64,000 bases of DNA from Candidatus Dormiibacterota bacterium (GTDB lineage Bacteria > Patescibacteriota > Saccharimonadia > UBA4664 > DATLOE01), in NCBI GenBank assembly GCA_035536395.1, contig DATLOE010000003.1:35713-99712 (forward strand), read 5' to 3'. Shown here piece after piece: positions 1-36,996 of this stretch. The position numbers were made by a program, and so were the translations under genes. The first letter of the stretch is position 1; the number at the start of each line of letters is the position of its first letter. Under the pieces are notes generated by a model. It had not been told where the DNA came from, searched no databases, and was given only the letters and a program-made list of their open reading frames with translations.

Positions 1-76
1 CTTCAAATACATAAACATTTCGCTCAGCTAGAGCAATCGCCTTTTCGCTGACGTGTGGTGTAAGGAGTAGGCTCAT
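1..76 (-). CDS. rplW: 50S ribosomal protein L23, N-terminal fragment (runs off the window edge)
   Basis: The reverse complement reads MSLLLTPHVSEKAIALAERNVYVFE. Its ATG overlaps the rplD stop as ATGA, and the S10-operon order L3-L4-L23 is kept. Confidence 0.6.
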   Translation of the reverse strand, partial: MSLLLTPHVSEKAIALAERNVYVFE

Positions 77-777
77 TTGGCTTCTCCTGCTGCTACCTTA
101 GTCTTGGTTGCAGCTTTTGGCTGGGCCTTCTTCTCTGATTTTTTAGATTCTCCCAGCCAGTTTTCGATTTTGTCTGCGGCATCAGCCGTAATTACGACAG
201 TGTCGGCATTTAGAATCACAAAAACATTCAGGTAGTTAGCGGCGGAGACGACCAGCTCGGGGATATTACGGGTCGAGCGGTCTATGGCATCGGTTTTCTC
301 GGGCACTACCAAGAGCACTCTGCCGGTAACGCCAATCTTCTGCAGCAGCGCGAGGGCTGTTTTAACTTTGCCATTTCCGCCATCGAATGATTCCAGAATA
401 ATTACTTTCTTATCAGCAGCTTGGGCGCTCAGCGCCTGGCGAATAGCCAACCGGCGAACCTTTTGCGGAAGCTGAACTTTGTGATTCTCCTCGCCTGTTG
501 GGCCAAAAGTTACACCGCCGCCCTTCCAGTGAGGTATGCGGATAGAACCGGCCCTGGCCCGCCCGGTACCCTTCTGTCGCCAAGGTTTACGACCGCCGCC
601 GCGCACTTCGCCGCGGGTCAGCACTTTGGCCTGGGCGCTGCGGCCATTAGCCAGATAGGTGTTGTATGCCAGCTTTAAGAGATCGTGGTTCAGTTCCAGC
701 CCAAAGACTTCTTTGGCTAGCGTTACCTGAGCCTCTTTTTTAGCTCCGGTCTTGGAATATGCGGTTACCTTACTCAC
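73..777 (-). CDS. rplD: 50S ribosomal protein L4
   Basis: The 234 aa ORF carries the L4 hallmark RGGGRKPWRQKGTGRAR and lies directly downstream of rplC with an 8 nt overlap. Confidence 0.95.
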   Translation of the reverse strand: MSKVTAYSKTGAKKEAQVTLAKEVFGLELNHDLLKLAYNTYLANGRSAQAKVLTRGEVRGGGRKPWRQKGTGRARAGSIRIPHWKGGGVTFGPTGEENHKVQLPQKVRRLAIRQALSAQAADKKVIILESFDGGNGKVKTALALLQKIGVTGRVLLVVPEKTDAIDRSTRNIPELVVSAANYLNVFVILNADTVVITADAADKIENWLGESKKSEKKAQPKAATKTKVAAGEAK

Positions 778-1438
778 TTGCAGCCTCCTGGCGCTCAGTC
801 GGCTTGATTAGCTTGATCATTACCAAAGATTTACGCGGACCGGGCACGGCGCCTTTTATAGCTACTAGGTTTTTGTCGGCCTCTACCTGTACTACTTTCA
901 AGTTTTTGACGGTTGTGCGCTCACCGCCCATGCGGCCGGCCATTTTAATACCCTTAAAGACCTTCTGGGGGTAGGCGCCGCCGATAGAGCCGGGCTGGCG
1001 ATGGTTGTGCGAACCGTGGCTCTTGGGGCCGGTAGCAAAATTATGCCGCTTTACGGTACCGGCAAAGCCCTTGCCTTTACTGGTAGAAGTTACCTGCACG
1101 GTGTCACCTGCCTGAAAAATACCGGCGTCTATCTTAGCGCCGACCTTAATCGGCTCTTCACCCTCTACAGCCTCTACGTCAGTTACCGAATCTTCCATCC
1201 GTACCTCACGCAGAACCTGTGGAGTAGCTTCACTAAATGTGGCATGTCCGGCTTGCGGTTTTGCCGGGTTCTTGGCCTTGCCAAGCCCCATCTGAATTGC
1301 CATATAGCCATCTTTTTCGCCGGTCTTTACCTGAGTAACCACACAGGGGCCAGCCTCCAGCACGGTGACGCGCTGAACGTTACCTTCTGCATCGAAGATC
1401 TGTGTCATTCCCAGTTTTCGGCCCAAGATAGCCTTCAT
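770..1438 (-). CDS. rplC: 50S ribosomal protein L3
   Basis: The 222 aa ORF has L3 motifs (MKAILGRKLGMTQIF, FKGIKMAGRMG) and a GGAG ribosome-binding site upstream. Confidence 0.95.
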   Translation of the reverse strand: MKAILGRKLGMTQIFDAEGNVQRVTVLEAGPCVVTQVKTGEKDGYMAIQMGLGKAKNPAKPQAGHATFSEATPQVLREVRMEDSVTDVEAVEGEEPIKVGAKIDAGIFQAGDTVQVTSTSKGKGFAGTVKRHNFATGPKSHGSHNHRQPGSIGGAYPQKVFKGIKMAGRMGGERTTVKNLKVVQVEADKNLVAIKGAVPGPRKSLVMIKLIKPTERQEAASE

Positions 1439-1576
1439 CCCGTTTGTTTTGCTCCTTAAACATATAAAATCCTAGGATTCGATCGGTTTTCCGCCTTTAG
1501 GGCGAAACCCTATCAACTCCTAGTTGGGTTAATGTGTATCTGGTCCGGCGGGCGCCGGATGCATTACTACCAAGTG

Positions 1577-1606
1577 AATATACCAGTAAATATGCTCTCC
1601 TGTCAA
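1577..1606 (-). promoter_or_regulatory. Sigma70-like promoter for rplC (minus-strand sense: TTGACA, 18 nt spacer, TATATT), about 130 nt upstream of the start
   Basis: Read on the minus strand: -35 TTGACA at 1606..1601 and -10 TATATT at 1582..1577. The intervening 5' UTR (1440..1575) contains GC-rich hairpins such as ccggcgggcgccgg. Confidence 0.4.
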
Positions 1607-1633
1607 CAGATATAGCCCAGTTACTTTAACTAT

Positions 1634-1661
1634 TGACAACATAAGCTCTTTAGTGTATAGT
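1634..1661 (+). promoter_or_regulatory. Sigma70-like promoter (TTGACA, 16 nt spacer, TATAGT) for the small plus-strand ORF, which would be leaderless
   Basis: TTGACA at 1634-1639 and TATAGT at 1656-1661, with the first ATG at 1671 only 9 nt downstream. Confidence 0.4.
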
Positions 1662-1670
1662 ATTTGCCAT

Positions 1671-1889
1671 ATGAATACTAATGATTTGTTCTACAATTTA
1701 GAGCGCGCATACGGGCGGATTACAGCTATTAATATAGTCCGCTGGGTTATTGCTTACGTGGTATGGATATTTATCTACACCCAGTTGCCGGAGTCGGTTT
1801 GGGTCGTGCGGCCATTTATGACATTCGTGGCTCAAGTGTTGATAGTAGTTATTATGATCGCGGCTATCGAAAAAGCCCGTAAGATGTAA
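1671..1889 (+). CDS. Small hydrophobic membrane protein (72 aa from the ATG at 1671; the track ORF begins at a GTG at 1653)
   Basis: Two predicted transmembrane segments (VRWVIAYVVWIFIY, VAQVLIVVIMIAAI) and a promoter immediately upstream. No homolog recognised. Confidence 0.4.
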   Translation: MNTNDLFYNLERAYGRITAINIVRWVIAYVVWIFIYTQLPESVWVVRPFMTFVAQVLIVVIMIAAIEKARKM

Positions 1890-1946
1890 CGTCGCCTATC
1901 GTTCGGGTAAAGCAAGAACAAAAGGGTGAGGAGTTTAGAGGTATAC

Positions 1947-3725
1947 TCATGACGCCTTGCCTATTAGTTCGCAGGCAAAATTGGTTGTCCCTGCACCATC
2001 TGCATTCACCGTGGAGCTGTTTCCGCTGCCGATTCCAACATTAACCTGGAAGTAATCAGTTGTGCCGTTAGCTAGGAACGTTCCGGTTGTACTAAGAACC
2101 GGGTTTATGGCCCCGGGAATACCATACCACTCCGCAGCCGCTTTACCGGTGTTGTTATTAACGATAGACCAGCTAACTGTTTGGCTGGCGGCCAGGGTGG
2201 ACATATATATTTGGGCTGAACAGCGATAGTAGCCCTTGATCGTGGGAGTAAACCGGCTGTTGCTGGTATCAAACCAGTTGGATACGTCCCAATCCTCAGC
2301 GTTAAAGGTCACATTCACACCCGCGCCCCCTGGGGTTGGGCTTTGAGAGTTGGTCGTTTTTCTTACACGAAAGCTGCCGGCAGCAAATCCATTAGCATCC
2401 TTGCCGGTTGAGCTCACACTGACACTCTCTGTAGTAATAAACCCGTCTTTATCTATCACAAACTTATCGCCTAGGGAGCCGTTGGTAAGAACCAATAGCT
2501 TAGCCCCAGAGGTGGTTAAGTTGGTATTGGCTTTCAGCTGAAAAGCTATAGTGCTGGCACCATCAGCCTTATTAGAGAACAGTATGCCTCCGGAAGTATC
2601 TACACCCAGTAAGGTAGTCCCCGCCGCATTCTGGACTTGGAAGGCAGTAGTAGAGTTGGCGGCGTTTTTGAATAAAGCGGTACCTTCTCCGGTAAAGTTA
2701 TTAGAAACCACCAGGGAGCCACTGTTAGTTAGTGTGGCAGCGGCTGAACGATATAGGGCAACGTCAATATTTGCGCCTGAATACCAATCTATCTCACTGC
2801 TAGCATCCAGCAGTATGCTAGCTCCTGAGCGCATATCCAGTGCTGGGCCATTGATGTATATGCGGCCACTAAATACTCCGTTGCCTGCTACATCCAGAGT
2901 ATCGGTCGGTGTTTTGCCTATGCCTACCCAGGCGTTAGTGGTGTCGGCCACCAGCAGGTTAGCTCCAGCTGCATTCTGGATTCTGAAGGCAGTGGTAGAG
3001 TCGGCGGCATTACGATGCAGGAGTGTGCCATTGAACCGGTTGTTACCGGTAAAGGTCTGAGGGCCGGTGCCGTTTAGTAGGGCTATGTTAGAGCTTAGTG
3101 CACTATCTGCTACCTTGCCAGCAGTCGAGATGGTGTTTAGCTTAGAGTCAGCTATAGAGCCGGCCAGTTCAGCATTCTCTATCAGCTGGCCGAGTAGAGA
3201 GACGGAAGAGCTTAGTCTGGCGTTATCTAGAGTGCCAGAGGAAAGATTGGTGGCATTAAGGGAGGTAAGGGAGGCACCGGAGCCTGCGAAGGTACCGGCT
3301 TGAACCGTACCTGACACATTGATGTTACCGGTCTCTTGCACTCCTGGGCTGGTGGCCTGGAGTGAGACACAAGTGCCATTGGGGCAGGTGGCAGTACCAC
3401 TGGGGCCTTGGGCACCGGTGGCGCCGGTTGCACCTGTTGGGCCAGTGGCTCCGATTGCACCAGTGACTCCCTGGATGCCTTGTTCCCCTTGTGGGCCGGT
3501 GGAGCCTTGCAGGCCTTGAGATCCCTGGGAGCCTGGCGCACCTTGGAGGCCGGCTGCGCCGGTGAGGCCTATGGGGCCAGCAGTACCGGCTATGCCTTGT
3601 TCACCTCTTGGACCGCGCTCACCGGGGTAGGTTAGGAATTGATCAGCTAGGAGGCCGGCGCCTGAGCTAATGAGGGCGGTGGCTAGGATTAGGGTTAGAA
3701 GTTTGGGGGTGGTTAGGTTCATCAT
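1947..3725 (-). CDS. Membrane-anchored collagen-like (G-X-Y) fibre protein with fibre-type beta repeats and a C1q/TNF-like C-terminal head
   Basis: N-terminal hydrophobic anchor [18 protein letters not shown], then about 75 aa of GxY triplets ([13 protein letters not shown]...), then three copies of the module [17 protein letters not shown]. The C-terminus ([10 protein letters not shown]...[10 protein letters not shown]) resembles BclA/C1q-like domains. Its start overlaps the upstream gene's stop as ATGA. Confidence 0.8.
3098..3395. repeat. About 300 bp near-identical direct repeat, copy 1 (partner at 5581..5880)
   Basis: By eye the nucleotide sequence from cttagtgcactatctgctacc through ggggcaggtggcagt matches copy 2 at about 95%, with 75-85% identity continuing through the GGN collagen-coding region. 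Confidence 0.7.
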
Positions 3726-6316
3726 TCTGCCCTAAAGGTTATGCCATCAAGTGGGAGATACTCTGTAGCGCCAAAGATGTACAATACTTCACCTGCGGAT
3801 CCTGGAGTAAGATTTTTTGATTTAATTACGAAACCACCCAGTATATAGCCAGTACCAGAGCTCCATGAAGCAGTAGAAAACTCCGCATCAGATGTACCAT
3901 CGGGTGCGTACCCTGAAGGCAAAGTGAATATCCTACTAGCTGTTCCCGATGACCGTTTTGCCTGACCTTTAAGGTGAACTACTCCCATAGAATCCTTAAA
4001 GAAGGCAACTGGCCTGTTTGCATCATAATTACCCCAGCCCGTATTAAAGGCCGGCTCTCCGACACCACCTACAAGATGCCAATTTTCCTGCTTAATATAG
4101 CCATCTTTATCTATCGAGAACTTCTCCACTCCATTATTCTTGAGGGATAGCAGTTTAGCACCGGAGGTAGCTAGAGAGACGGTGGTGTTGAAGGTAAAAC
4201 CTACCGCAGTAGCTCCATCTGCTACGCTACTAAATATGCGTGCGTTACTGGTATCAACACCGAATAAGGTAGTCCCAGTTGCATTCTGCACCTGGAAGGC
4301 GGTGGTGGAGTTGGTGGAGTTTTTGAATAAGACTGTCCCCCTGACAGCTAGCTCCTGACCAACCGAGACAGATTGGGTAAAGGTGGCTGGTCCCTGCACT
4401 TGAAGTTGGCCGACCACATTGGTATTGCCCGCCGTCAATTCACCACCCGTCCCGCCTTCAGCCAAGTTTTGGCCGCCCAGACCAACCAGATCAACCGCCC
4501 CACCAATCTTCAGCCGGGAGACTGAGGCATAATAAATAGTGTTTTGAATGCTCTCACCATCATAACCAGCCATTACATAGACCCAGCCATTAGCGATGAT
4601 TGAGCTAGCTGCCCTTCTTGTTGTTGGAAGAGCGGCTAAGTTAGTACTCCAACTGCCTACAGACCCATCGGCATTCAACTTTCCATAGTGGACAGTGGCT
4701 GCGGAATTGCCACCAATTACATACACGTATCCGTCTGCTACTACTGATGAGTGGTTCTCCCGGATAGCAGGCAACGTATTACTATTGGTTGACCAAGCCC
4801 CAGTTGAACCGTCGGCGTTTAACTTTGCGTAGTAAACAGTTGATTGAGCAGCACTGTCGTTTGCACCACCAATCACATAGACATAACCGTTTGCCACAAT
4901 AGAGCTGTGTGAATTTCGAACAGCTGGCAGAGCGTTAGCATTGGTACTCCAGCTGCCAGTGGAGCCATCGGCGTTAAGTTTGGCGTAGTAGACAGTTGAT
5001 TGAGCACTAGCATTAAATCCACCCAATACATATACGTATCCATTTGCAACTACAGAACTGGCAAAACTTCGAGCGGCAGGTAGTGTATTAGAGTTGGTTT
5101 GCCAAGCATCGGTTGAGCCGTCGGCGTTGAGCTTAGCGTAGTAGACAGTAGAGTCTGGTGTGCGCCCACCAATCACGTAAATATATCCATTAGCCACAAC
5201 TGATGTATGGGCTGATCGTACGGCAGGCAAGGCATTCGCATTGGTGGACCAGGTTCCAGCGGATCCATCAGCATTTAGCTTGGCATAATAGACAGTGGAT
5301 TGGGCATTTCCAGATCCAGTCGAATTTTCTCCACCAATCATATACACAAACCCATTAGCAGTGACTGAAGAATGTAACCAGCGGACACCTGGCAAGGCAT
5401 TACTGCCAGTACTCCAACTCTGCAGTTCACCCGAATTTAGTCCGTTAAGAGTTAAATTGCCATTGGTAGTATCTACCTGAAAAAGACTACCTGCCGCTGC
5501 ATTCTGTATCTGGAAGGCGGTCGTGGAATTGGCGGCGTTTCGGTGGAGAAAGGTGCCGTTGAGTAAGGCTACATTGGCACTTAGTGCACTATCTGCTACC
5601 TTGCCGGCAGTCGAGATGGTATTTAGCTTAGAGTCAGCTATAGAGCCGGCCAGTTCAGCATTCTCTATCAGCTGGCCTAAGAGTGAGACGGAAGAGCTTA
5701 GTCTGGCGTTATCTAGAGTGCCAGAGGAAAGATTGGTGGCATTGAGGGAGGTTAGTGAAGCTCCGCTCCCGCTGAAGGAGCCGGCTTGAACCGTACCTGA
5801 CACATTGATATTACCGGTCTCTTGCACCCCTGGGCTTGTGGCCTGGAGTGAAACACAAGTGCCATTGGGGCAGGTGGCAGTGCCGGATGGGCCGGTGGCT
5901 CCGGTTGCACCTGTTGCACCAGTGGCTCCAGTTGCACCAGTGGCTCCCTGGATACCCTGCTCCCCTTGCGGGCCGGTTGAACCTTGGATACCTTGGGCGC
6001 CCTGCTCGCCTGGCGAGCCCTGCAAGCCGGCTGCACCGCTTAGGCCGATGAGGCCAGTGGCTCCCTGGGTACCTTGCTCGCCTTTTGGTCCACGCTCCCC
6101 AGGGTAGGTTAGGTACTGGTCGGCAATGAGACCGCCTGCGGCTCCGACTATGGCAGTTGTAAAGAAGATCATAAGTAGTTGGTTGAAGGAGAGGGAGAGT
6201 ATCCCGGCTTGATTCTTGAGTAACGCAAATAGACCCGTTGGGGGCGGGGTGTTTGGTTGGTGCGAATGCTTCGCAATGGAACCTTTGATGCCTTTTAGGC
6301 CATGAAGGTTAACCAA
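3722..6316 (-). CDS. Membrane-anchored collagen-like fibre protein with a six-blade Kelch-type beta-propeller and a distinct C-terminal domain. The start is uncertain: TTG at 6316 or ATG at 6172.
   Basis: Transmembrane segment [18 protein letters not shown], GxY triplets including (GAT)x5, a shared N-terminal module [30 protein letters not shown], and six repeats of the form [14 protein letters not shown]......P..R......[11 protein letters not shown]. Confidence 0.8.
4530..5450. repeat. Six tandem units of about 150 bp encoding the Kelch blades
   Basis: Repeated DNA units of the form ccaccaatcacata[cg]a[ct]a...cc[ag]tt[ag]gc.ac.a.tga, visible in the sequence and in the protein repeats. Confidence 0.6.
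5581..5880. repeat. About 300 bp near-identical direct repeat, copy 2 (partner at 3098..3395)
   Basis: See copy 1. It encodes the shared module [50 protein letters not shown]. Confidence 0.7.
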
Positions 6317-6357
6317 CCGGATGATAACTCCTCTTTAGTTTTTATTTACTCCACCTT

Positions 6358-6446
6358 GCTTATGCCAAGAACAGGGTGTTTAAGACCCCGAGAAAGCATA
6401 AGCGTGATGTGTAGTAATTATACCGCTTATGCTCAGGGAGTGTAAA
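6358..6446 (-). promoter_or_regulatory. Promoter (TTTACA, 18 nt spacer, TATAAT) plus three copies of the GCTTATGC / GCATAAGC motif upstream of the collagen-fibre operon
   Basis: On the minus strand: -35 TTTACA at 6446..6441 and -10 TATAAT at 6422..6417. Motif copies sit at 6358-6365 (forward), 6396-6403 (reverse) and 6425-6432 (forward, directly abutting the -10). Confidence 0.45.
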
Positions 6447-6455
6447 GGGGTAAAA

Positions 6456-6701
6456 TTAGAATCGCCAAGTGACAGTAATGCCGATACCGAAGAGGCCTAG
6501 CAATGAAGCAATTACAAGTATGGCGTACTCTATTTTGCGATCAATCTGCAGCTTTTCATGACGAACTGCAAGTAAGCCCAGAATCAGGCCGAAGGGCAGC
6601 AGGCGGGCCTCGTTAAAAGCAAACCAAACGCTTCCGATAATGAAGTACAGCAGGATTTTTAAAAAGTAGATGCTATCGAGTTCTTGTTTTACAGGTTTCA
6701 T
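6456..6701 (-). CDS. Small two-TM membrane protein (81 aa from the ATG at 6701; the track ORF extends to 6770)
   Basis: An AGGGG ribosome-binding site precedes the ATG at 6701, and the protein has two hydrophobic helices. The motif copy GCTTATGC lies at 6723-6730, 22 nt upstream. Confidence 0.4.
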   Translation of the reverse strand: MKPVKQELDSIYFLKILLYFIIGSVWFAFNEARLLPFGLILGLLAVRHEKLQIDRKIEYAILVIASLLGLFGIGITVTWRF

Positions 6702-6865
6702 ACCCCTATCTAACCACAAAATGCTTATGCTGTCATCTCCAATGCGCTTATCTTGGCGTTCCCACAACATTCCCCTTGCCCGCCTCAGAAGCTCTTGTTA
6801 ATGCTCCTAATGCCTAACGGCACCTATTGCCTGTAGGATGGAGACAGTAATAAAGGGGGTATGCA

Positions 6866-7089
6866 TGGCAAAAGAACGAGGCAAAATGAGTCGGGCCGAG
6901 GCCGGCAAGCTAGGCGGCGAGGCTACGAGTAAAAAACATGATTCAGAGTTCTACTCTGAGATCGGTCAGAAAGGCGGCCAAGAAAGCGGAGGGAACTTTA
7001 AAAATGACCCCGAGCGGGCCAGGGAGGCCGGCAAGAAAGGCGGCCAGGCATCCACTAGCCGGAGCAGAGAGGATACAGAAGAAATATAG
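6866..7089 (+). CDS. KGG-repeat stress-induced protein (YciG / Con-10-like)
   Basis: MAKERGKMSRAEAGKLGGEATSKK...GQKGGQESGGNF...AGKKGGQAS carries three KGG-type repeats. An AAGGGGG ribosome-binding site sits 6 nt before the ATG at 6866 (the track ORF starts at 6838). Confidence 0.6.
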
Positions 7090-7096
7090 CCTGATA

Positions 7097-7125
7097 AAAG
7101 AGCCCCTTCGGGGGCCTTTTTTATT
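7097..7125 (+). terminator. Rho-independent terminator after the KGG gene
   Basis: Hairpin gagcccc-ttcg-ggggc followed by TTTTTTATTTCTCTCTTT. Confidence 0.6.
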
Positions 7126-7305
7126 TCTCTCTTTAAAACAAAATAACGCCTTTGCTGGAGTGGAGTACAAGGCAGAATCGATATCTAAATAAGTTTATAT
7201 TTTGATGAGATGCAAGGCGGCGCTGAAGCGCGCCAGTGAGCAGTAGCCAAACCTACTGTGAATGCGCACTGGAAGCGCCAACGCCGCAGCTCGCGAAATA
7301 CAAAG

Positions 7306-7752
7306 TTATTGCTTGTAGTAGGAGCGGATTTGGAACAGAATGTACAACCCTATAACCGCGCTCACCAGACCGCTTACAATCTGACCGTTCATAATGCTGT
7401 AAACGAGGTTAACGATGTCACTGTAGAACACTAGGTTCCAGCCGCTCATCTTGCGGGCAAACAGGCCCGGCAGAGCTGCTATCATCAACACTACCTGCAC
7501 AATGAGGGCAATTAAAGCCGCGCCCAAACCGGCGGCTGCTGTAGCTCCCCCGAGGCCAGAAAATGGCAGTACGGCCGCGCCTAAGCCCAGCGCCACTAAG
7601 ATGGCCGGTGCCAGAAGCACTAATATTACGATGTTTATCCATGGAGCGTACTTTACTATCCAGTCTTTAGCGCCTTTGGGGATCTGGAAGGGAGCCTTTG
7701 TTACAAAATAATACTCCATCTTTTGCATGATACCTTGTGATTGCTGGGCCAT
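7306..7752 (-). CDS. 4-TM membrane protein, paralog A (unknown family)
   Basis: 148 aa. Shares with paralog B the features W(I/V)V(K/R)(Y/N)A.W, KGWNL, and a C-terminal QIRSYYK. Confidence 0.55.
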   Translation of the reverse strand: MAQQSQGIMQKMEYYFVTKAPFQIPKGAKDWIVKYAPWINIVILVLLAPAILVALGLGAAVLPFSGLGGATAAAGLGAALIALIVQVVLMIAALPGLFARKMSGWNLVFYSDIVNLVYSIMNGQIVSGLVSAVIGLYILFQIRSYYKQ

Positions 7753-7817
7753 AAGTTTTCCTTTACTTAAGGTTAATTTGCTTTAATTAAAGCACTACGG
7801 CACCCAAAAAGCAATAC

Positions 7818-7826
7818 GCTTATGCT
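7818..7826. promoter_or_regulatory. GCTTATGCT motif copy upstream of paralog A
   Basis: cgCTTATGCTTtg lies about 66 nt upstream of the ATG at 7752 and overlaps the stop of the preceding gene. Confidence 0.35.
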
Positions 7827-8281
7827 TTGTAATAAGAGCGAATTTGGAGCAGTATATAGAAGCTAATGCCGGTTATTACTACAGCCGTTACGTAATGGCC
7901 AAAAACGATATCGTATATTGTATGGGTTATGGCAGCCGCGGCCAGCAGATTCCAGCCCTTCATCTCTCTGCGCTCTAGCGGCTTAATGGCCAGTGCGATC
8001 AATATAAACTGGATGATTAATGCTACCGCCCCGCCGCTTATATCACTGGCTGAACTTGGTATACCCAGAAATGCCAGCGGCAGCTTGTTTATACCCAGCA
8101 CCACGGCCAGCGCTACTACCGGCAGATAGAGAATGGTGAGCAATATGGCTACCCAGTGAGCGTTGCGTACGATCCACTCCTTAGCCCAGAAAGGCAGGCG
8201 GTACCCGCCGCCATCGCTGTAGCCGCGCACGGCTGCCTGACGGCCAGAATTGCCCCGGTTTACCTTGCGTCCGCCCGCCAT
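7820..8281 (-). CDS. 4-TM membrane protein, paralog B
   Basis: 153 aa ending QIRSYYKA. A GAAGGGGAA ribosome-binding site lies inside the end of the upstream micro-ORF. Confidence 0.55.
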   Translation of the reverse strand: MAGGRKVNRGNSGRQAAVRGYSDGGGYRLPFWAKEWIVRNAHWVAILLTILYLPVVALAVVLGINKLPLAFLGIPSSASDISGGAVALIIQFILIALAIKPLERREMKGWNLLAAAAITHTIYDIVFGHYVTAVVITGISFYILLQIRSYYKA

Positions 8282-8284
8282 CTG

Positions 8285-8416
8285 CTATTCCCCTTCGACG
8301 CCCGGCAGATCTACCTTGTGGCCGTTCGTACAGTGGCCATGATTGTCTTGTTCCTGGCAGTCTTCATCTTGGCAGTTTAGAGCTACTTCTTCGCTACATT
8401 CTACGCATTTAGCCAT
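8285..8416 (-). CDS. Cys/His-rich 43 aa micro-protein, a putative zinc-binding peptide (below the ORF-track size cutoff)
   Basis: MAKCVECSEEVALNCQDEDCQEQDNHGHCTNGHKVDLPGVEGE, with 6 Cys and 3 His. A consensus AGGAGG ribosome-binding site sits 6 nt upstream, and its stop is 3 nt from the ATG of paralog B. Confidence 0.45.
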   Translation of the reverse strand: MAKCVECSEEVALNCQDEDCQEQDNHGHCTNGHKVDLPGVEGE

Positions 8417-8442
8417 AAATTCCTCCTGTTAGGTTTATTAAT

Positions 8443-8454
8443 GCTTATGCTTAT
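8443..8454. promoter_or_regulatory. Tandem GCTTAT-GCTTAT motif copy upstream of the micro-protein operon
   Basis: atGCTTATGCTTATat lies 27 nt upstream of the ATG at 8416. Confidence 0.35.
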
Positions 8455-8488
8455 ATTTTAGCACATCTGGTGAATATTTTAGAAAAAG

Positions 8489-9154
8489 TTAGCTCTTAAG
8501 CCGAGAGTACTCGGCAATAAGCTTTACCTTATCCTTAAAGTCAGGGGTCGCGCGCCACTTACTCAGTAGCTGCTTGTCTGTCCTTAGGCTATATGAAGCC
8601 CTAGATTTTTCCGCGCTTAAATCTTTAAGCAGTAAGTCGGTCATTAATTCCATAAATAATCTATTTTGGCCCTTACCAATGTCAACTTTGGATTGCCTAA
8701 TATATTCGATAATATATAAATGCATCAGCTCATGCAGTAGCGGATCTATAAAGTTCGGCCAGTCATAATAAAGATCAATGCGTTTTTTATCCGAGAAAGC
8801 AATATGCGGAGGAATTGCCGACAGGCCAATAATACAAATACCAGAAATTTTTACTGGTACAGTTGCTTCACAAATTTTTATTACTCCCCCTCCGTCTTGA
8901 GTCAGTTGTTTTTGCAACCGATCTTTTGCCTTTGCAAATAAGCCTCTGTTTTGCTTATAAAAGTTATCAAAGTAATCTTCTAGCGGTTTGAGCGCGCTTC
9001 CTTTTGGATAGGTCTGATAAATATTGGCGAGATCAGGATGCCGACTCACTATCACATTATAGTAGCTTAATCCTGACCACTCAGGCATTGAATATCCAAA
9101 TGCCCCTGCCTTAAGCGGGTCAAAATCCTTTGCCAGTTGGATTGTAAACTTCAT
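8489..9154 (-). CDS. Cytoplasmic HExxH-motif protein, a putative zinc metallohydrolase of unknown family
   Basis: 221 aa containing DPLLHELMHLYIIEY. A TATAAT at 9169..9164 lies only about 10 nt upstream of the ATG, so the transcript is probably leaderless. Confidence 0.45.
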   Translation of the reverse strand: MKFTIQLAKDFDPLKAGAFGYSMPEWSGLSYYNVIVSRHPDLANIYQTYPKGSALKPLEDYFDNFYKQNRGLFAKAKDRLQKQLTQDGGGVIKICEATVPVKISGICIIGLSAIPPHIAFSDKKRIDLYYDWPNFIDPLLHELMHLYIIEYIRQSKVDIGKGQNRLFMELMTDLLLKDLSAEKSRASYSLRTDKQLLSKWRATPDFKDKVKLIAEYSRLKS

Positions 9155-9210
9155 AGACCATCTATTATAAAGAAAAATGGCCAGTTTGGAGACATGGCCA
9201 GGTCTTTTTT

Positions 9211-9366
9211 CTACTTGTCCTCCCAGCCAGGGTATATCCGCTCCATGGCCTCGTCGGACTTCTGCTCGTCAGAGGCAGAACCCGGAGGGGAGGAGGGAGA
9301 TGAGGAAGAACCAGAGGAATCCGAGCTCTCTGAGCCCGAGGAACCGCTACTGGACTCTCCGTCCAT
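9211..9366 (-). CDS. Ser/Gly-rich acidic 51 aa micro-ORF (uncertain)
   Basis: MDGESSSGSSGSESSDSSGSSSSPSSPPGSASDEQKSDEAMERIYPGWEDK with AAAGGAG 5 nt upstream of the ATG. It competes with the low-complexity track ORFs 9137..9400 (+) and 9165..9482 (-). Confidence 0.3.
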   Translation of the reverse strand: MDGESSSGSSGSESSDSSGSSSSPSSPPGSASDEQKSDEAMERIYPGWEDK

Positions 9367-9547
9367 TTGCACTCCTTTGTCTGGGCATCCAATTTTTTAA
9401 GCTGCCGGACTATCCGGCCTCTTGTCGTATTGGGCGCCGTTTGATAGGTGCTTGGAGGGGATAGGCAGAGCCTAGACGCCATCTCCGTAGCAGTACGCTA
9501 ACTTATACAACAATTACTGCAATTATTCAATAGATGAGTAGCTATGT

Positions 9548-9886
9548 TTACAAATAAAACGCCAAGATGCCATGTTCGGCAATTTTTTCTCTATAGCCCT
9601 GAAAGCCATAATAAACCTTTTCGGCTTCCTCTAGGGATTCTATACCTGGCATAACCTTGCCAAAATCACCTGATTTATAGATGTCTTCTACAGATTTATA
9701 GTGCCTAATGTCTTTCACGGTCTTTTCGATCGTGTCGCTACCGCATTTGATTACTAACGTATCGCCAACTTCGATTTTCTTAAACTTAACTGTGCCAGCG
9801 CGGGTTTCTACCGTCTTCCGCCCCACCCGAATATCTTCGAACTCATCCTTATCCCCCGCCCTGAATCTTAGAATATGCTTTTTCAT
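9548..9886 (-). CDS. ASCH/PUA-like small domain protein
   Basis: 112 aa beginning MKKHILRFRAGDKDEFEDIRVGRKTVETRAG, a pattern that resembles ASCH domains. Assigned from memory. Confidence 0.4.
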   Translation of the reverse strand: MKKHILRFRAGDKDEFEDIRVGRKTVETRAGTVKFKKIEVGDTLVIKCGSDTIEKTVKDIRHYKSVEDIYKSGDFGKVMPGIESLEEAEKVYYGFQGYREKIAEHGILAFYL

Positions 9887-9922
9887 TTTGCCCCCACTGT
9901 GGATAAATCTATTGTCATAGCG

Positions 9923-9948
9923 CTTATGCTTGCTACAATAAGCATAAG
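9923..9948. promoter_or_regulatory. Perfect 9 bp inverted repeat CTTATGCTT-N8-AAGCATAAG, an operator-like site
   Basis: cgCTTATGCTTgctacaatAAGCATAAGta lies 37-62 nt upstream of the ATG at 9886. Confidence 0.45.
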
Positions 9949-10013
9949 TATAATATTCAGAACTAATGCGAGTGGGGAGTGTAGTTGCTTCCCTCTCGTT
10001 TTTTGATCCTTAA

Positions 10014-10214
10014 CTAGTCGTTAAGAAGATCATTAAGCGAGTCTTTGCCGCGCCGCTCGAGCAGCGTGTCGAGATACATATCAGAGCGAACATTAAAGTC
10101 CACCCCATATTGCTCCTCGATCGTGCGTACGTGGGTATCCCCACGCTTCTCACGAAGCGGGCCTCTGGAGTTTCGGGAGCGGTGACCCCGCATCCCTGGA
10201 GCATCCTTAGCCAT
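10014..10214 (-). CDS. Small hypothetical protein (66 aa from MAKDAPG; the track ORF extends to 10265)
   Basis: A GAAAGG ribosome-binding site precedes the internal ATG, and the protein is basic. The motif copy CTTATGCTTGCTAC lies at 10362-10375. Confidence 0.35.
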   Translation of the reverse strand: MAKDAPGMRGHRSRNSRGPLREKRGDTHVRTIEEQYGVDFNVRSDMYLDTLLERRGKDSLNDLLND

Positions 10215-10361
10215 TGCAAGCCTTTCTAGCCGGTGTCTTAAGGTGTTTATCCGGCCAGTCCTCAACCGAACACCACACCGTAAAGGAGAGAGGCCTCCCC
10301 ACTCACATCAATTCTCAAGGAATGAATACTAGGTTAGCAAAAACTCACGTGTCGCACAATA

Positions 10362-10375
10362 CTTATGCTTGCTAC
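10362..10375. promoter_or_regulatory. Motif copy CTTATGCTTGCTAC
   Basis: A 14 nt stretch identical to 9923-9936. Confidence 0.35.
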
Positions 10376-11058
10376 TTGAGGTAGTTGGGCAAGGCTTGGC
10401 GGTTTGGCAGCCACTTAGTATACCAACCAAGCAGTTCCGGAGGCAAAAGACTGTCATGCAATTCAGTACCGATGAAAGAATGCAATTCGTCAGTAAAATC
10501 AGTAGATCCCGGCAGCACACCCCTATGATGGTATGATGCAGTGCGTTGATCAAACGCCGCTTTGTGCTGACCATACACAATATTTAAATATGGGGTCAGG
10601 CGGTTTCTTTCAGATTCTGAACTAATAAACCACACGTAATGTAGATATTCATGGGCTAAAGTTGCCCTTTGCTCTAATAAATCTCTCTGTAAAATCTCCG
10701 GCGCCAAGTAAATAGTGCCGTCTTTAATAGCGCCATAGGCATGATATGAAGCTGCAAAGCAGCCTGTAGAGCCTGGTGGGCAACCCATTGGAAGAGGGGC
10801 AATCCTAGCCTTTGTTCTTAGTAAATCGTCTCGATTAATACCTAAATCTGCGCCCCACTGCTCAATGCGGCGATCAAGAACAAACTTAGGGTCAATCGGG
10901 AAAGAGCCAAGTCCTATTCTTGGGTTATAGCCTATCTTCTCTCGCACACTCTTGATAAGAGGGTGCTCAATCGCCGTGGGATCCAAGACCAAGCCAATTG
11001 CTAACACGGCAATGATGACTGCAACCTTAAAGCCCGTTTTGAAAACATGCTTTTTCAT
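10372..11058 (-). CDS. Secreted or membrane-anchored HExxH-motif protein, a putative zinc metallopeptidase
   Basis: N-terminal hydrophobic segment VAVIIAVLAIGLVL and the motif TLAHEYLHYVWF. Confidence 0.5.
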   Translation of the reverse strand: MKKHVFKTGFKVAVIIAVLAIGLVLDPTAIEHPLIKSVREKIGYNPRIGLGSFPIDPKFVLDRRIEQWGADLGINRDDLLRTKARIAPLPMGCPPGSTGCFAASYHAYGAIKDGTIYLAPEILQRDLLEQRATLAHEYLHYVWFISSESERNRLTPYLNIVYGQHKAAFDQRTASYHHRGVLPGSTDFTDELHSFIGTELHDSLLPPELLGWYTKWLPNRQALPNYLK

Positions 11059-11071
11059 CTTTTAGAAGTTA

Positions 11072-11839
11072 CTAGCTTTCTTTCTGATCCCAAATAATTA
11101 CTTCTTTGTGCAACTCTTGAACTGACTGAAGATAGAAGAGCATATCGCGAGCAGCTCTCTCGACTACATATCCGCGAAGTGAACGCCAATTTTCAACATT
11201 ATCTTGCGACCAGTCTTTTTCAGGAGAATTCAGTAAGAAAGGAAAAAGATTCACATTTTTCTCTAGTTCGGTTAATGCACGTCTTACTTTGAGCATTTTT
11301 GCATAAACGGTTTTTGGCATCACAGAAGAATAATACTGTAGATTCTCATTGGCTGATTTTCTTAATTCTTCAATATTTTTTATTAGGCTGTCCCACTTGT
11401 CGGGTGGTAGCTTAGTCATAGCTTGACCCAGGTCAATTGCAATTAAATTACTGAGTATAGCCTCTTGTGCAGCTTTAGTGGATTCTTCCTGACGGTCGGT
11501 ATCAATTTTGTATTGGGTTATATCAAAGCCTAAAGGTGATGACACCCAGATGATAAGCGTATTACGAAGTCTTTTCATATCCTCAAGGGCGGATTCCATG
11601 CCCTCGCGAAGGCTAAGCTTATCCTTCCTATCCTTCAGTACCTCGATGAAAAATACGGTGAGCAGGGAGCTAAAGGCGCCGGCAGAGAGGTTAAGGGTCA
11701 TGTCACTCCACCGAAAGTGCTTTTCCTGATAGCCTAATGCCACAAAGAGTCCAACCGACATCACCAAAAGGGCGAGAAAAATAATGATATTAGCACGAGA
11801 GTAAAGGAGCCTGTAAAATTTCCTAAAGGCCCGACGCAT
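11072..11839 (-). CDS. Membrane protein with two N-terminal TM segments and a long cytoplasmic helical region, unknown function
   Basis: 255 aa. Its start is 3 nt downstream of the rpsJ stop, so it is probably co-transcribed with tuf-rpsJ. Confidence 0.5.
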
Positions 11840-11842
11840 ACA

Positions 11843-12184
11843 TTACATCTTAATTTCTATGTCCACCCCAGCGGGGAGGTTCAAATTCATCAGGTTGTCT
11901 ACGGTCTTTGGCGTAGGCTCTGTAATGTCTATTAAGCGCTTATGTGTGCGCATCTCAAACTGTTCCCGCGCTTTCTTAAAAATGTGCGGGCTTTTAATAA
12001 CGGTAGTCACGTTTCTATCTGTCGGCAGCGGAATCGGCCCGGCCACTTTGGCGCCGGTACGAATCGCCGTATCTAGAATCTGCTTGGCAGACTGATCTAT
12101 CACCTTATTGTCATACGCCTTTAAGCGAATGCGTATTCTCTGTTTGGGTGCTTCAGTATTTTCTTTCTTTTTTGCTTCTGCCAA
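11843..12184 (-). CDS. rpsJ: 30S ribosomal protein S10
   Basis: Contains [22 protein letters not shown]...HKRLIDI. Confidence 0.95.
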
Positions 12185-34959: not shown

Positions 34960-36996
34960 TTAATCGAGCGATGTCATCGCTTTTAAGCGATTGATGCGCT
35001 CTAAAACTATTGGGTATTGTAGCATGGCCTGAGGCTCGGCCACAAAGTCGGCCGTAATGTTACGCACGCTGGCTACCAGCTTCGTATCGCTCAAATCAGC
35101 CAAGCGCAGGTCTAATATGCCGTGCTGCTTTTGGCCGTAAATCTCCCCCGGTCCGCGCAACTCAAGATCAATCTGAGCAAGTCTGAAACCATCCTGGGTC
35201 CTCTCTAGTGCCTGCAAACGGCGAAATGCGTCACCACCCTCAGTACCCGTAAACAGCAAACAGTATGAGCTATGCGTACCGCGCCCGATACGACCTCGCA
35301 GCTGATGCAGAGCGGCCAGGCCAAAACGCTCCGCACCTTCCACTAGCATAATGCTGGCATTGGGGATATCTACTCCAACCTCAATCACACTGGTAGCCAC
35401 CAATATATCAAGCTTGCCATCTGCAAACCGCCCCATAACGGCATCGCGCTCCGCTGGCTTAAGCCTGCCATGCACCACACCAATCCGGCGATGCTTAAAT
35501 GGCCCCTTGGCCAACCTCTCGGCCTCGGCCGTTACGCTTTTGGCCTCTAGTACATGCGAATCTTCAATCAGCGGGCAGACTACAAACATCTGCCGGCCGC
35601 GGGCGAGCTGAGTATCAATGAATTTATACGCACTGTCTCTTTTATCCGGTTCCACCAGCTTAGTGGCCACACTTTTTCGCCCCGGTGGCATTTCATCTAT
35701 AACCGAAATATCCAGATCGCCATACACAGTCAGCGCCAGGCTTCTGGGTATAGGGGTGGCCGTCATGCTTAAAAGGTGCGGCAGGCAGCCGGCTTTAGTT
35801 TTAAGCGTCTGTCGCTGAGACACACCAAAGCGATGTTGCTCGTCTATAATCACCAGCCCCAGGTTGGCAAAACTAACACCCTCTGATAGAAGAGCATGCG
35901 TACCGATAGTAAGATGAGCTGTGCCGCTGGCCAACTGTTTATTTGCTTCTTGCTTGGCTTTAGCCGTTTGACTGCCTACTAGTAGTACCGTCTGGTACCC
36001 CAGCCGTTTTAGTAGGGGTGTCAGCCTGGCAAAATGCTGTTTGGCTAGGATTTCGGTCGGCACCATCAGAGCAGCTTGAAGCCCACCGGCCATTGCCATG
36101 GTAGCAGCCAGGGCCGCTACAGCCGTCTTACCGCTACCTACATCACCCTCTAGCAAGCGATTCATCGGCCGCTCTCCAGACATATCCTGCAGAATCTGCC
36201 AGGCGGCCTTGCGCTGGGCATCGGTTAAATCGAAGTCTTGCGCGGCAGTAAACTTCTTTGCCACGTCAGCATCCAGGGGTATCACAGGAGCCTGCTCAGT
36301 CTTAATTTCACTTTTTATAATTAGGCTAGCGGCAATAACGTAGAACAGTTCTTCAAACGCAAAGCGGCGACGGGCCTGCTCTAATTTCTGCCGACTAGAG
36401 GGCGCGTGGATTTCGGTTAAGGCCTCACCAAATGGCGCAAGCTTACCGGCTTTTAGGATTTCTGCGGGCAGAGTCTCTGGCAGCTCTCTGGCGCGATGCA
36501 AAAGCGGCATAATAAAACCCCTGAGCTGTTTTGAGGTAAGCCCTTCTGTTTCAGGGTAAATCGGCACAATGCGAGCCGTATGCTTTGGGTCACCATTATC
36601 TTCTTCTATAGCCGGGCTTTGCAGTGCCAGGTCACTGTTCTTAAACTCCAGCTTTCCCGAAACAAGCACCCGCTTGCCGGGAGGGAAGCTACGGGTAAGG
36701 TACGGTTGGTTGAACCACACAACCTTTACCGTACCGGTCTCGTCTGTAAGGATTGCCTCGGTAATAGACAGCCGGCGACTGCGCGCCCGGCGGTTAGCAA
36801 TGGCAACCACCTCGGCCCGGAAAGTTACAAGGCCCGGCCGCATTGAGCGGATTGGAATAATATTAGAAAAATCATCATAACGGCGAGGGTAGTGATTCAG
36901 CAGTTCGCCAACAGTTGTAATTTTAAGGCGGGCAAGTCTTTTTACCGCTAGCGGCCCGACACCCTTCAAGGTTTCTACCGAGCGGTCTAAATACAT
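34960..36996 (-). CDS. recG: ATP-dependent DNA helicase RecG
   Basis: 678 aa with GDVGSGKT and DEQHRFG. Confidence 0.9.
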   Translation of the reverse strand: MYLDRSVETLKGVGPLAVKRLARLKITTVGELLNHYPRRYDDFSNIIPIRSMRPGLVTFRAEVVAIANRRARSRRLSITEAILTDETGTVKVVWFNQPYLTRSFPPGKRVLVSGKLEFKNSDLALQSPAIEEDNGDPKHTARIVPIYPETEGLTSKQLRGFIMPLLHRARELPETLPAEILKAGKLAPFGEALTEIHAPSSRQKLEQARRRFAFEELFYVIAASLIIKSEIKTEQAPVIPLDADVAKKFTAAQDFDLTDAQRKAAWQILQDMSGERPMNRLLEGDVGSGKTAVAALAATMAMAGGLQAALMVPTEILAKQHFARLTPLLKRLGYQTVLLVGSQTAKAKQEANKQLASGTAHLTIGTHALLSEGVSFANLGLVIIDEQHRFGVSQRQTLKTKAGCLPHLLSMTATPIPRSLALTVYGDLDISVIDEMPPGRKSVATKLVEPDKRDSAYKFIDTQLARGRQMFVVCPLIEDSHVLEAKSVTAEAERLAKGPFKHRRIGVVHGRLKPAERDAVMGRFADGKLDILVATSVIEVGVDIPNASIMLVEGAERFGLAALHQLRGRIGRGTHSSYCLLFTGTEGGDAFRRLQALERTQDGFRLAQIDLELRGPGEIYGQKQHGILDLRLADLSDTKLVASVRNITADFVAEPQAMLQYPIVLERINRLKAMTSLD

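Follow-up and report, generated by a model that had tools for sequence, protein, structure and literature searches.

Two adjacent genes on the reverse strand of a 64,000-nucleotide stretch of DNA (here called the window; positions 35,713 to 99,712 of contig DATLOE010000003.1, assembly GCA_035536395.1) encode fibre-like proteins, named here gene A, which carries a Kelch propeller, and gene B, which ends in a C1q-like head. The two genes share a long direct repeat, and the question raised by this locus is whether the repeat serves to exchange fibre heads or records how such genes evolve. A sequence-only reading of the window had proposed the former, a built-in recombination cassette. We found a real repeat with an ordinary explanation, which is gene conversion in a modular fibre family. 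We put at roughly 70% the probability that the repeat is the shared 5' neck/stalk segment of two anchored trimeric fibre paralogues and that it is near-identical by gene conversion, not because it is a programmed switch.

When aligned in exact register, positions 3094-3395 of gene B and 5580-5881 of gene A run in the same orientation at an offset of 2,486 nt and are identical at 279 of 302 positions (92.4%), a similarity far above chance. The near-identical segments that the sequence-only reading had placed at 3098-3395 and 5581-5880 were real and right to within 3 nt, with the second interval 1-3 nt out of register, so that the two intervals as first drawn are 91% identical. Its figure of about 95% identity applies to two sub-tracts only, 3094-3257 (96.3% identity to the gene A copy) and 3295-3395 (96.0%), and not to the repeat as a whole. 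The two sub-tracts are split by a 37-nt patch of older divergence, which contains TCC/AGC serine codon switches between genes A and B. The longest perfect runs in the repeat are 59, 56, 29, 29 and 26 nt, and the 23 mismatches between the copies involve all bases (among them 8 C/T transitions and 9 substitutions in which gene A has the A). The total homologous tract is longer (3066-3657 versus 5552-6134, 84% over 594 alignment columns by BLASTN), and the repeat finder reported it as two direct-repeat families, 3066-3365 versus 5552-5851 (90%) and 3415-3657 versus 5892-6134 (77%), with a 9-nt indel between the copies at the stalk/collagen boundary. The second family is the homeologous collagen sequence; its homology exists as proposed, but its length is about 245 bp (243 nt, 77.4%), about half of the 500 bp suggested. 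Further copies of the repeat, of the short modules or of the Kelch units described below were not present elsewhere in the 64-kb window. We also observed a 9/18-nt micro-repeat (5895-5947) in the collagen region of gene A, which encodes the run GATGATGATGATGATG (GAT triplets) and adjoins the 9-nt length difference between A and B, suggesting triplet slippage in the collagen stalk.

The strongest evidence for gene conversion came from silent sites. In windows analyzed by the Nei-Gojobori method, synonymous divergence (dS) was 1.0-1.6 in the collagen part and module 1, where nonsynonymous divergence (dN) was only 0.05-0.15, whereas dS was 0.06-0.2 in the two stalk tracts and about 0.7 in the internal patch. 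Among codons for the same amino acid in both genes, 37 of 68 (54%) differed in the collagen part and 16 of 24 (67%) in module 1, compared with 21 of 103 (20%) in the stalk overall and 12-14% in the stalk tracts only (stalk versus flanks, Fisher p = 9e-8). A max-chi-square scan gave gene A codons 146-245 as the best segment, which was matched by none of 300 permutations. The mark of concerted evolution, a segment-specific deficit of silent substitutions relative to the flanking homologous sequence, was therefore found in the repeat. Since the flanks are equally conserved as protein and yet near silent saturation, protein conservation alone cannot explain the identity of the repeat, and the simplest reading would be a mosaic of gene-conversion tracts, not protein-level selection. 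Indeed, recombination between the two segments, which had been anticipated from the sequence, evidently occurred in the past of this lineage, because silent sites are homogenised only in the repeat tract.

These data also bear on an explanation without recombination, in which an old duplication would have been followed by purifying selection, on the protein and on codons or nucleotides, that was strongest in this segment. In its favour, no other part of the protein is conserved as well across the family as the neck and stalk, whose motif also recurs in phage fibres. However, silent sites are saturated in flanks whose dN is just 0.05-0.07 and show the codon contrast given above, and the 37-nt patch, which lies within a conserved protein stretch, is 35% divergent and carries double-step serine codon switches. 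RNA structure was rejected as a cause of silent-site conservation, since the repeat segment folds no better than its shuffles (z = -1.14). We consider purifying selection without exchange an unlikely history of the repeat, and two comparisons with other genomes, given below, agree with this. A history in which a segment was duplicated recently and its distal part was replaced afterwards, which would leave the 300 bp as the remnant of a young duplicate, fits the tandem arrangement with its ATGA overlap and the finding that A and B are each other's closest relatives across the N-terminal 240 aa. In that case, however, the collagen part, which is 5' of the stalk, should be equally young, but its silent sites are near saturation; the internal old patch requires a mosaic origin; and any version that fits still imports the segment by recombination, which is operationally gene conversion. 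As a separate history, a young duplicate is improbable.

Two more paralogues, P0066 (VNA68_02850) and P0067 (VNA68_01680, partial), are encoded on other contigs of the same metagenome-assembled genome (MAG). P0066 has the anchor, the collagen part, the same neck, a stalk with a duplicated 65-residue unit and an A-type head, without a Kelch propeller, and P0067 has the same proximal part as A, B and P0066 followed by a third tail type. One stalk is thus common to four paralogues with three tail types. Among the four, protein identity was 27-50% in the anchor, 67-80% in the collagen part, 89-96% in the neck and 91-98% in the last stalk unit, while the two A-type heads (gene A and P0066) were 43% identical. 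Over neck and stalk, A and B were 96% identical to each other and 85-87% identical to the other two paralogues. Outside the MAG, the best full-length stalk in a database of 5.8 billion proteins was 68% identical, and the best among species-representative genomes about 50%. In the stalk segment only, the copies within the genome are far closer to each other than to any foreign homologue, which is a signature of concerted evolution; near-identical copies within the genome next to foreign stalks of at most 68% protein identity also argue against purifying selection as the sole cause. The stalks of P0066 and P0067 consist of two 65-residue units separated by a 26-residue spacer, and the single unit of A and B resembles a hybrid, the start of unit 1 joined to the rest of unit 2, which looks like the pattern expected of unequal exchange between units.

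The same pattern was observed in a saccharibacterial genome, L014 (CAYPDT010000001), in which 698 bp running from anchor to stalk are 100% identical between two paralogues separated by 9.2 kb (476-1173 and about 9700-10400), with an upstream flank 70-77% identical and unrelated sequence downstream. Judged by sequence comparison, this is an independent recurrence of the identical-tract pattern in an unrelated genome, and perfect identity with abrupt borders is again not what purifying selection predicts. The first paralogue of L014 is a 2,790-aa fibre gene, and the second appears split or frameshifted at 10414-10480. Sequences of the same species or strain as the window were not found in the genome, metagenome and protein collections: the best match of a genome-collection scan for the same species had 53% protein identity and came from a different species, and a metagenome scan with the stalk returned only short-motif matches in marine fibre proteins and no close strain. 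A 2,816-aa fibre protein from a marine metagenome (L105, 8795-17245) has 20 residues identical to the A/B stalk, within repeated NAMLAGSIA..KL motifs.

Several points weigh against gene conversion between anchored fibre genes. The DNA-level comparison rests on two sequences, A and B, and cannot fix the direction, number or age of the conversions. The tracts are still about 4% apart, so the last exchange was not very recent. Protein conservation is also highest in the neck and stalk, where stronger constraint could account for some of the contrast in silent sites. Surface display, trimerisation and the binding target are predictions from homology and models, and the identity of the organism is uncertain, given a Dormibacteraeota label and saccharibacterial relatives.

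A programmed or high-frequency cassette would mean that the repeats are kept so that cells delete or duplicate 2.5 kb and thereby switch the head or the copy number. The geometry allows this, as the direct repeats are in the same codon phase, and a simulated crossover in the 59-nt run produced the deletion of about 2.5 kb that had been foreseen, with the stalk of the Kelch gene fused to the C1q-like head: exactly 2,486 bp were removed, and the resulting 627-aa protein stayed in frame, with the N-terminus and stalk from gene A and everything distal to them, head included, from gene B. RecA-dependent exchange in Escherichia coli generally needs about 25-30 nt of identity (the minimal efficient processing segment, MEPS), which the perfect runs of 59 and 56 nt exceed. 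However, the deletion product is approximately gene B with the 80%-identical N-terminus of gene A, plus loss of the Kelch gene, and not a new head variant; of the head-domain variation proposed for the locus, what stands is that heads are reassorted on the same stalk among the four paralogues. Exchange should be made much rarer by the 8% divergence, which leaves no more than 59 nt between mismatches, and the assembly shows one arrangement only. Moreover, there was no inverted repeat of at least 30 nt in positions 1-9000, where both genes have the same orientation, no recombinase domain in the ten neighbouring open reading frames (ORFs) scanned and no signature of a diversity-generating retroelement (DGR), and both copies are complete expressed-type genes, not silent cassettes. 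The term built-in cassette therefore fits the geometry of the repeats but not their equipment, and we regard a programmed cassette as very improbable. The repeat is an ordinary outcome of paralogy and gene conversion and should not be reported as a switching device.

Three known systems were compared with the locus and rejected. An invertible tail-fibre segment or shufflon (Gin, Cin, Rci type) was ruled out by the lack of inverted repeats and of a recombinase in the ten ORFs scanned. A DGR target was rejected because the mismatches are not adenine-specific and the repeat is in the constant and not in the ligand-binding part; no search for a reverse transcriptase was made in the rest of the genome. 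Antigenic variation from silent cassettes (pilE/pilS, vlsE type) was rejected because both copies are full-length ORFs with starts and the window holds no further copy; as both genes are complete and overlap by ATGA, neither is a silent promoterless copy. The locus is not any known programmed variation system.

The locus had also been called intrinsically unstable on account of six tandem Kelch units of about 150 bp and four copies of a module of about 90 nt. The four module copies were confirmed (89 nt each, 65-81% identity, Table 1). The six Kelch units are visible in the protein as six ANG(Y/F/W)(V/I)Y..GG blades, but the DNA shows only four units (about 70% identity, spacing 147-156 nt), and Tandem Repeats Finder scored neither the Kelch DNA units nor the modules. 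The instability itself did not hold: neither Kelch units nor modules have exact matches as long as 16 nt among them, which makes them implausible substrates for homologous exchange, and all exact repeats of at least 16 nt within the two genes are in the main repeat, except a 17-nt collagen micro-repeat.

An assembly artefact, in which reads of strain variants were joined or duplicated into a false tandem pair, has in its favour that the contig (100,311 bp) is of the short-read MAG type and that repeats of about read length can mislead assemblers. The copies, however, differ at 23 positions with identical runs of at most 59 nt, so that k-mers above about 61 are unique; the distal parts are entirely different, the reading frames are intact, the ATGA junction is precise, and gene B has been deposited independently as an NCBI protein. 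We give this explanation almost no weight.

Table 1. Features of the gene A and gene B locus, with positions in the window.
Feature	Position	Strand	Basis
Gene B, 592 aa	1947..3725	-	ORF; Pfam Collagen 50.0 bits; 100% match to P0065
Gene B head, residues 436-592, 157 residues, C1q/TNF superfamily	1950..2420	-	Profile homology
Conserved pre-head junction, gene B	2435..2468 (partner 4093-4126 in gene A)	-	Repeat family D5; directly upstream of both head types
89-nt module, gene B module 2	2596..2684	-	Repeat family D4; 56% aa identity to gene A counterpart
89-nt module, gene B module 1	2941..3029	-	Repeat finder
Repeat copy in gene B	3094..3395	-	Codons 111-211, neck + stalk; 279/302 match to 5580-5881
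Old divergent patch, 37 nt, between the two 96% tracts	3258..3294 (partner 5744-5780)	-	64.9% identity
Homeologous collagen-coding segment, gene B	3415..3657	-	243 nt, 77.4% to 5892-6134; silent sites near saturation
Hydrophobic anchor, gene B, residues 9-27	3645..3701	-	Kyte-Doolittle mean 2.05 over 19 residues
ATGA overlap, gene A stop/gene B start	3722..3725	-	ORF coordinates and sequence, GCAGAATGATGAAC
Gene A, 864 aa, TTG start	3722..6316	-	ORF; Pfam Collagen 51.9 bits, Kelch PF24681 110 bits
Gene A head, residues 738-864, 127 residues	3725..4105	-	AlphaFold2 (AF2) model, predicted local distance difference test (pLDDT) 88.7 (36 homologues)
89-nt module, gene A module 2	4251..4339	-	Repeat finder
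Six-blade Kelch beta-propeller, gene A, residues 300-600	4517..5419	-	Pfam; PDB sequence matches KLHL12, KEAP1, designed six-blade propellers
89-nt module, gene A module 1	5469..5557	-	Repeat finder
Repeat copy in gene A	5580..5881	-	Codons 146-246, neck + stalk; low-silent-divergence segment by max-chi-square = A146-245
Homeologous collagen-coding segment, gene A	5892..6134	-	Partner of 3415..3657; holds 9-nt/18-nt micro-repeat
Hydrophobic anchor, gene A, residues 47-65	6122..6178	-	Kyte-Doolittle mean 2.17 over 19 residues
Promoter-like site upstream of gene A	6417..6446	-	TTTACA-18-TATAAT, 11/12 matches; consensus match only

Gene A consists, in this order, of an N-terminal tail, a hydrophobic anchor, 25 uninterrupted GXY triplets, the neck/stalk, a module, a six-blade Kelch propeller, a second module with the pre-head segment and a head predicted to resemble gp15 of phage PSA, and gene B consists of a hydrophobic anchor, 26 uninterrupted collagen triplets, the neck/stalk, two modules, a pre-head segment and a head of the C1q/TNF family. 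Both collagen parts exceed the gathering threshold of Pfam Collagen PF01391 (A 51.9 and B 50.0 bits versus a cut-off of 27.2), and the propeller scores 110.4 bits against Kelch PF24681 (cut-off 50; profile positions 2-221 of 221). The neck/stalk, the portion that the repeat encodes, has 107 residues and contains GNINVSG. Its best viral matches were PHROG tail-fibre families, and 163 stalk relatives were confirmed on IMG/VR viral contigs; those inspected are in tail-fibre-like genes adjoining giant tail proteins. The pre-head motif (K/D)F(S/V)IDKDG(Y/F)I, which reads FSIDKDGYI in gene A and FVIDKDGFI in gene B, recurs before many different tails in database homologues, sometimes twice per protein, and this junction is a candidate distal boundary for head exchange.

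The model of the gene A head had its best fold match in the receptor-binding protein (RBP) gp15 of Listeria phage PSA (6r5w; template modelling score, TM, 0.57-0.64, root-mean-square deviation 2.6-3.0 Å), but with E 1.3e-3 and an identity of 15-16%, and the next matches were adenovirus fibre knobs and the TP901-1 RBP. This head matched no Pfam family and has about 40 homologues, as C-terminal domains of 180-260-aa proteins. For gene B, the C1q-like head first recognised from the sequence proved correct by profile homology via its relatives. The head alone scored 16.0 bits (E 0.015) against Pfam C1q (PF00386), below the cut-off of 23.7; among its single-domain relatives, 28 of 57 match PF00386 (best E 1e-9), and the family profile matched adiponectin (8.3e-15), C1q (3.8e-10), cerebellin (3e-9) and C1QL1-3 (1e-6 to 2e-5) in the PDB. 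Its structural model is of low confidence (pLDDT 52, built with 2 relatives from a word-indexed search); the top 50 fold matches of this model were almost all C1q/TNF-like trimeric heads (E about 2e-4, TM 0.4-0.53), including C1QL2, C1qA, TNF-like phage needle knobs and Bacillus ExsFA. The bacterial C1q-like family of this head is large, with 19,162 representatives at E ≤1e-3 in an exhaustive search with a hidden Markov model, and occurs as standalone proteins of about 180 aa and also in up to 10 copies in giant proteins of 1,000-3,500 aa. In one metagenomic protein of 280 aa (P0027), a B-type domain (residues 32-136) is followed by an A-type head (169-279), so that both head types are fused in tandem. 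Neither head had a match in the related Saccharibacteria loci searched.

Taken with the silent-site mosaic, these parts suggest the following mechanism. Each gene would most likely produce an N-terminally anchored trimeric surface fibre, built from base to tip of a hydrophobic anchor, a collagen triple helix, a phage-tail-fibre-like stalk, variable spacer modules and a receptor-binding-type head, which may bind another cell, probably the host of an epibiotic Patescibacterium. The near-identity of the repeat would be the footprint of non-reciprocal homologous recombination between the paralogues, presumably of RecA type, in at least two tracts around the older 37-nt patch, while the flanking homologous parts would have drifted to near silent-site saturation. 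The conserved stalk would be structurally required by every member of the family, and as a by-product its homology may let distal parts and heads reassort over evolutionary time. A conversion tract of this kind would explain how the constant parts stay identical while the heads diverge.

Further, we tentatively consider, as a rather unlikely possibility, that the stalk and the IDKDG pre-head junction form a portable pair of homology anchors for head exchange in a naturally competent epibiotic Patescibacterium. Heads would then be exchanged among the four or more paralogues and also with DNA taken up from relatives or phages. Saccharibacteria are reported to be naturally competent (10.1101/2023.05.02.539146). 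If this possibility were true, the locus would be a cellular counterpart of phage tail-fibre mosaicism that sets and diversifies the host bacteria to which the cell can attach, and the fibres would be a host-recognition system of bacteria of the Candidate Phyla Radiation (CPR), a role so far discussed mainly for type IV pili. Host recognition by ultrasmall epibionts is treated in the literature searched as an open question and addressed mainly via type IV pili, and the fibre genes are concrete candidates for it. In any case, the locus draws attention to a multigene fibre family that combines an anchor, a collagen stalk and a phage-fibre-like neck with exchangeable heads: the Kelch and PSA-RBP-like type, the C1q-like type and one or more others. 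Members are common in MAGs of Saccharibacteria and Patescibacteria, often clustered with several stalks, modules and Kelch propellers, and we found no description of a collagen-stalked fibre family in the searchable literature on collagen-like or tail-fibre-like proteins of these bacteria.

Gene conversion between bacterial paralogues is known from tufA/tufB in Salmonella, opa and pilE/pilS in Neisseria and vlsE in Borrelia. These cases resemble the present locus in segmental homogenisation within one genome, with young tracts within old divergence. The locus differs from them in that it has no silent donor cassettes and gave no evidence of high-frequency antigenic variation, and conversion here preserves the constant part and does not vary the exposed one. 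The closest functional analogues are the mosaic tail-fibre genes of phages, the MAT fibres of Bdellovibrio and BclA of Bacillus. Fibre genes of P2, Mu and P1 and of the T-even phages are said, in work attributed to Haggard-Ljungquist in 1992 and Sandmeier in 1994, to pair a proximal part that is conserved with distal host-range domains that can be exchanged, and to recombine at conserved boxes. Genes A and B are like phage tail-fibre and RBP genes in that a constant proximal stalk is joined to a distal head that varies. Their stalk motif also occurs in fibre genes of viral contigs, they match PHROG tail-fibre families, their heads are predicted to have RBP-type or TNF-like knob folds, and a conserved junction precedes these heads. 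Unlike phage fibres, A and B are chromosomal, between rpsJ and rplC, have an N-terminal hydrophobic anchor instead of a virion-attachment domain, and show no invertase-type switching.

BclA of the Bacillus exosporium (and ExsFA/BclB) forms a surface nap from a collagen-like triple helix with a trimeric C1q/TNF-like head at its C-terminal end, an arrangement predicted also for gene B, and Pfam BclA_C was matched by 4 of 57 relatives of the gene B head. Unlike gene B, BclA carries an N-terminal exosporium-targeting motif and not a hydrophobic anchor, and it lacks modules and any stalk like that of tail fibres; it matched gene B in sequence over the collagen region only (E 0.16). Streptococcal Scl1/Scl2 and Legionella Lcl are bacterial trimeric surface adhesins that also have a collagen stalk, but the topology of Scl is reversed: its variable head is N-terminal and its LPXTG anchor C-terminal. 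Membership of A and B in the Scl/Lcl families was rejected, as the NCBIfam matches covered the collagen region only and scored 41-45 bits, far below the cut-offs of 325-500. The MAT (mosaic adhesive trimer) fibres of Bdellovibrio bacteriovorus form a cellular multigene family of trimers that resemble phage fibres; their N-terminal part is invariable, their C-terminal tips are diverse, and recognition of the surface of another bacterium has been proposed as their role (PMC10769870). One MAT tip has a TNF/C1q-like fold with its best match in PDB entry 4QPY (PMC10769870), which the model of the gene B head also matched. MAT fibres differ from A and B in their beta-helical or beta-prism shafts, in the S74 chaperone domains of some members and in a distinct N-terminal domain, and by their published description they are without collagen repeats, hydrophobic anchor or Kelch propeller, so that A and B are likened to them as analogues and not counted as members.

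The gene B product is identical to the NCBI protein VNA68_00590, from a MAG labelled Candidatus Dormibacteraeota. The window, which has a GC content of about 50%, corresponds to NCBI proteins HVE80627-HVE80654 (locus tags VNA68_) under the same label, yet the relatives of the fibre family are essentially all from Saccharibacteria and Patescibacteria. This suggests mis-binning or mislabelling, and the presence of housekeeping genes on this contig makes horizontal transfer the less likely explanation.

Gene A is preceded by a ribosome-binding site, AAGAGGAG, at 6335-6328, 11 nt ahead of its TTG start. The stop codon of gene A overlaps the start codon of gene B in ATGA, which implies translational coupling and co-transcription, and the two genes are probably co-transcribed. 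The pair sits in a 10.4-kb insert (1438-11843) between rpsJ (11843-12184) and rplC (770-1438), downstream of tuf. Phage genes were not seen around the pair, synteny of the fibre locus with ribosomal genes was not found in the other family loci compared, and an Rfam scan gave one tRNA only, far from the locus. In addition, rpsJ and rplC are normally neighbours; the insert between them holds the two fibre genes, small membrane proteins, an ASCH-domain protein, a KGG stress protein and ORFs without a Pfam match, and rplC is now preceded by a strong promoter-like site (1606-1577, TTGACA-18-TATATT with TG) and a GC-rich leader. Two adjacent reverse-strand ORFs at 7306-7752 and 7820-8281 (148 and 153 aa), without a Pfam match, resemble tandem paralogous membrane proteins, and their C-termini are alike (GLYILFQIRSYYKQ and SFYILLQIRSYYKA).

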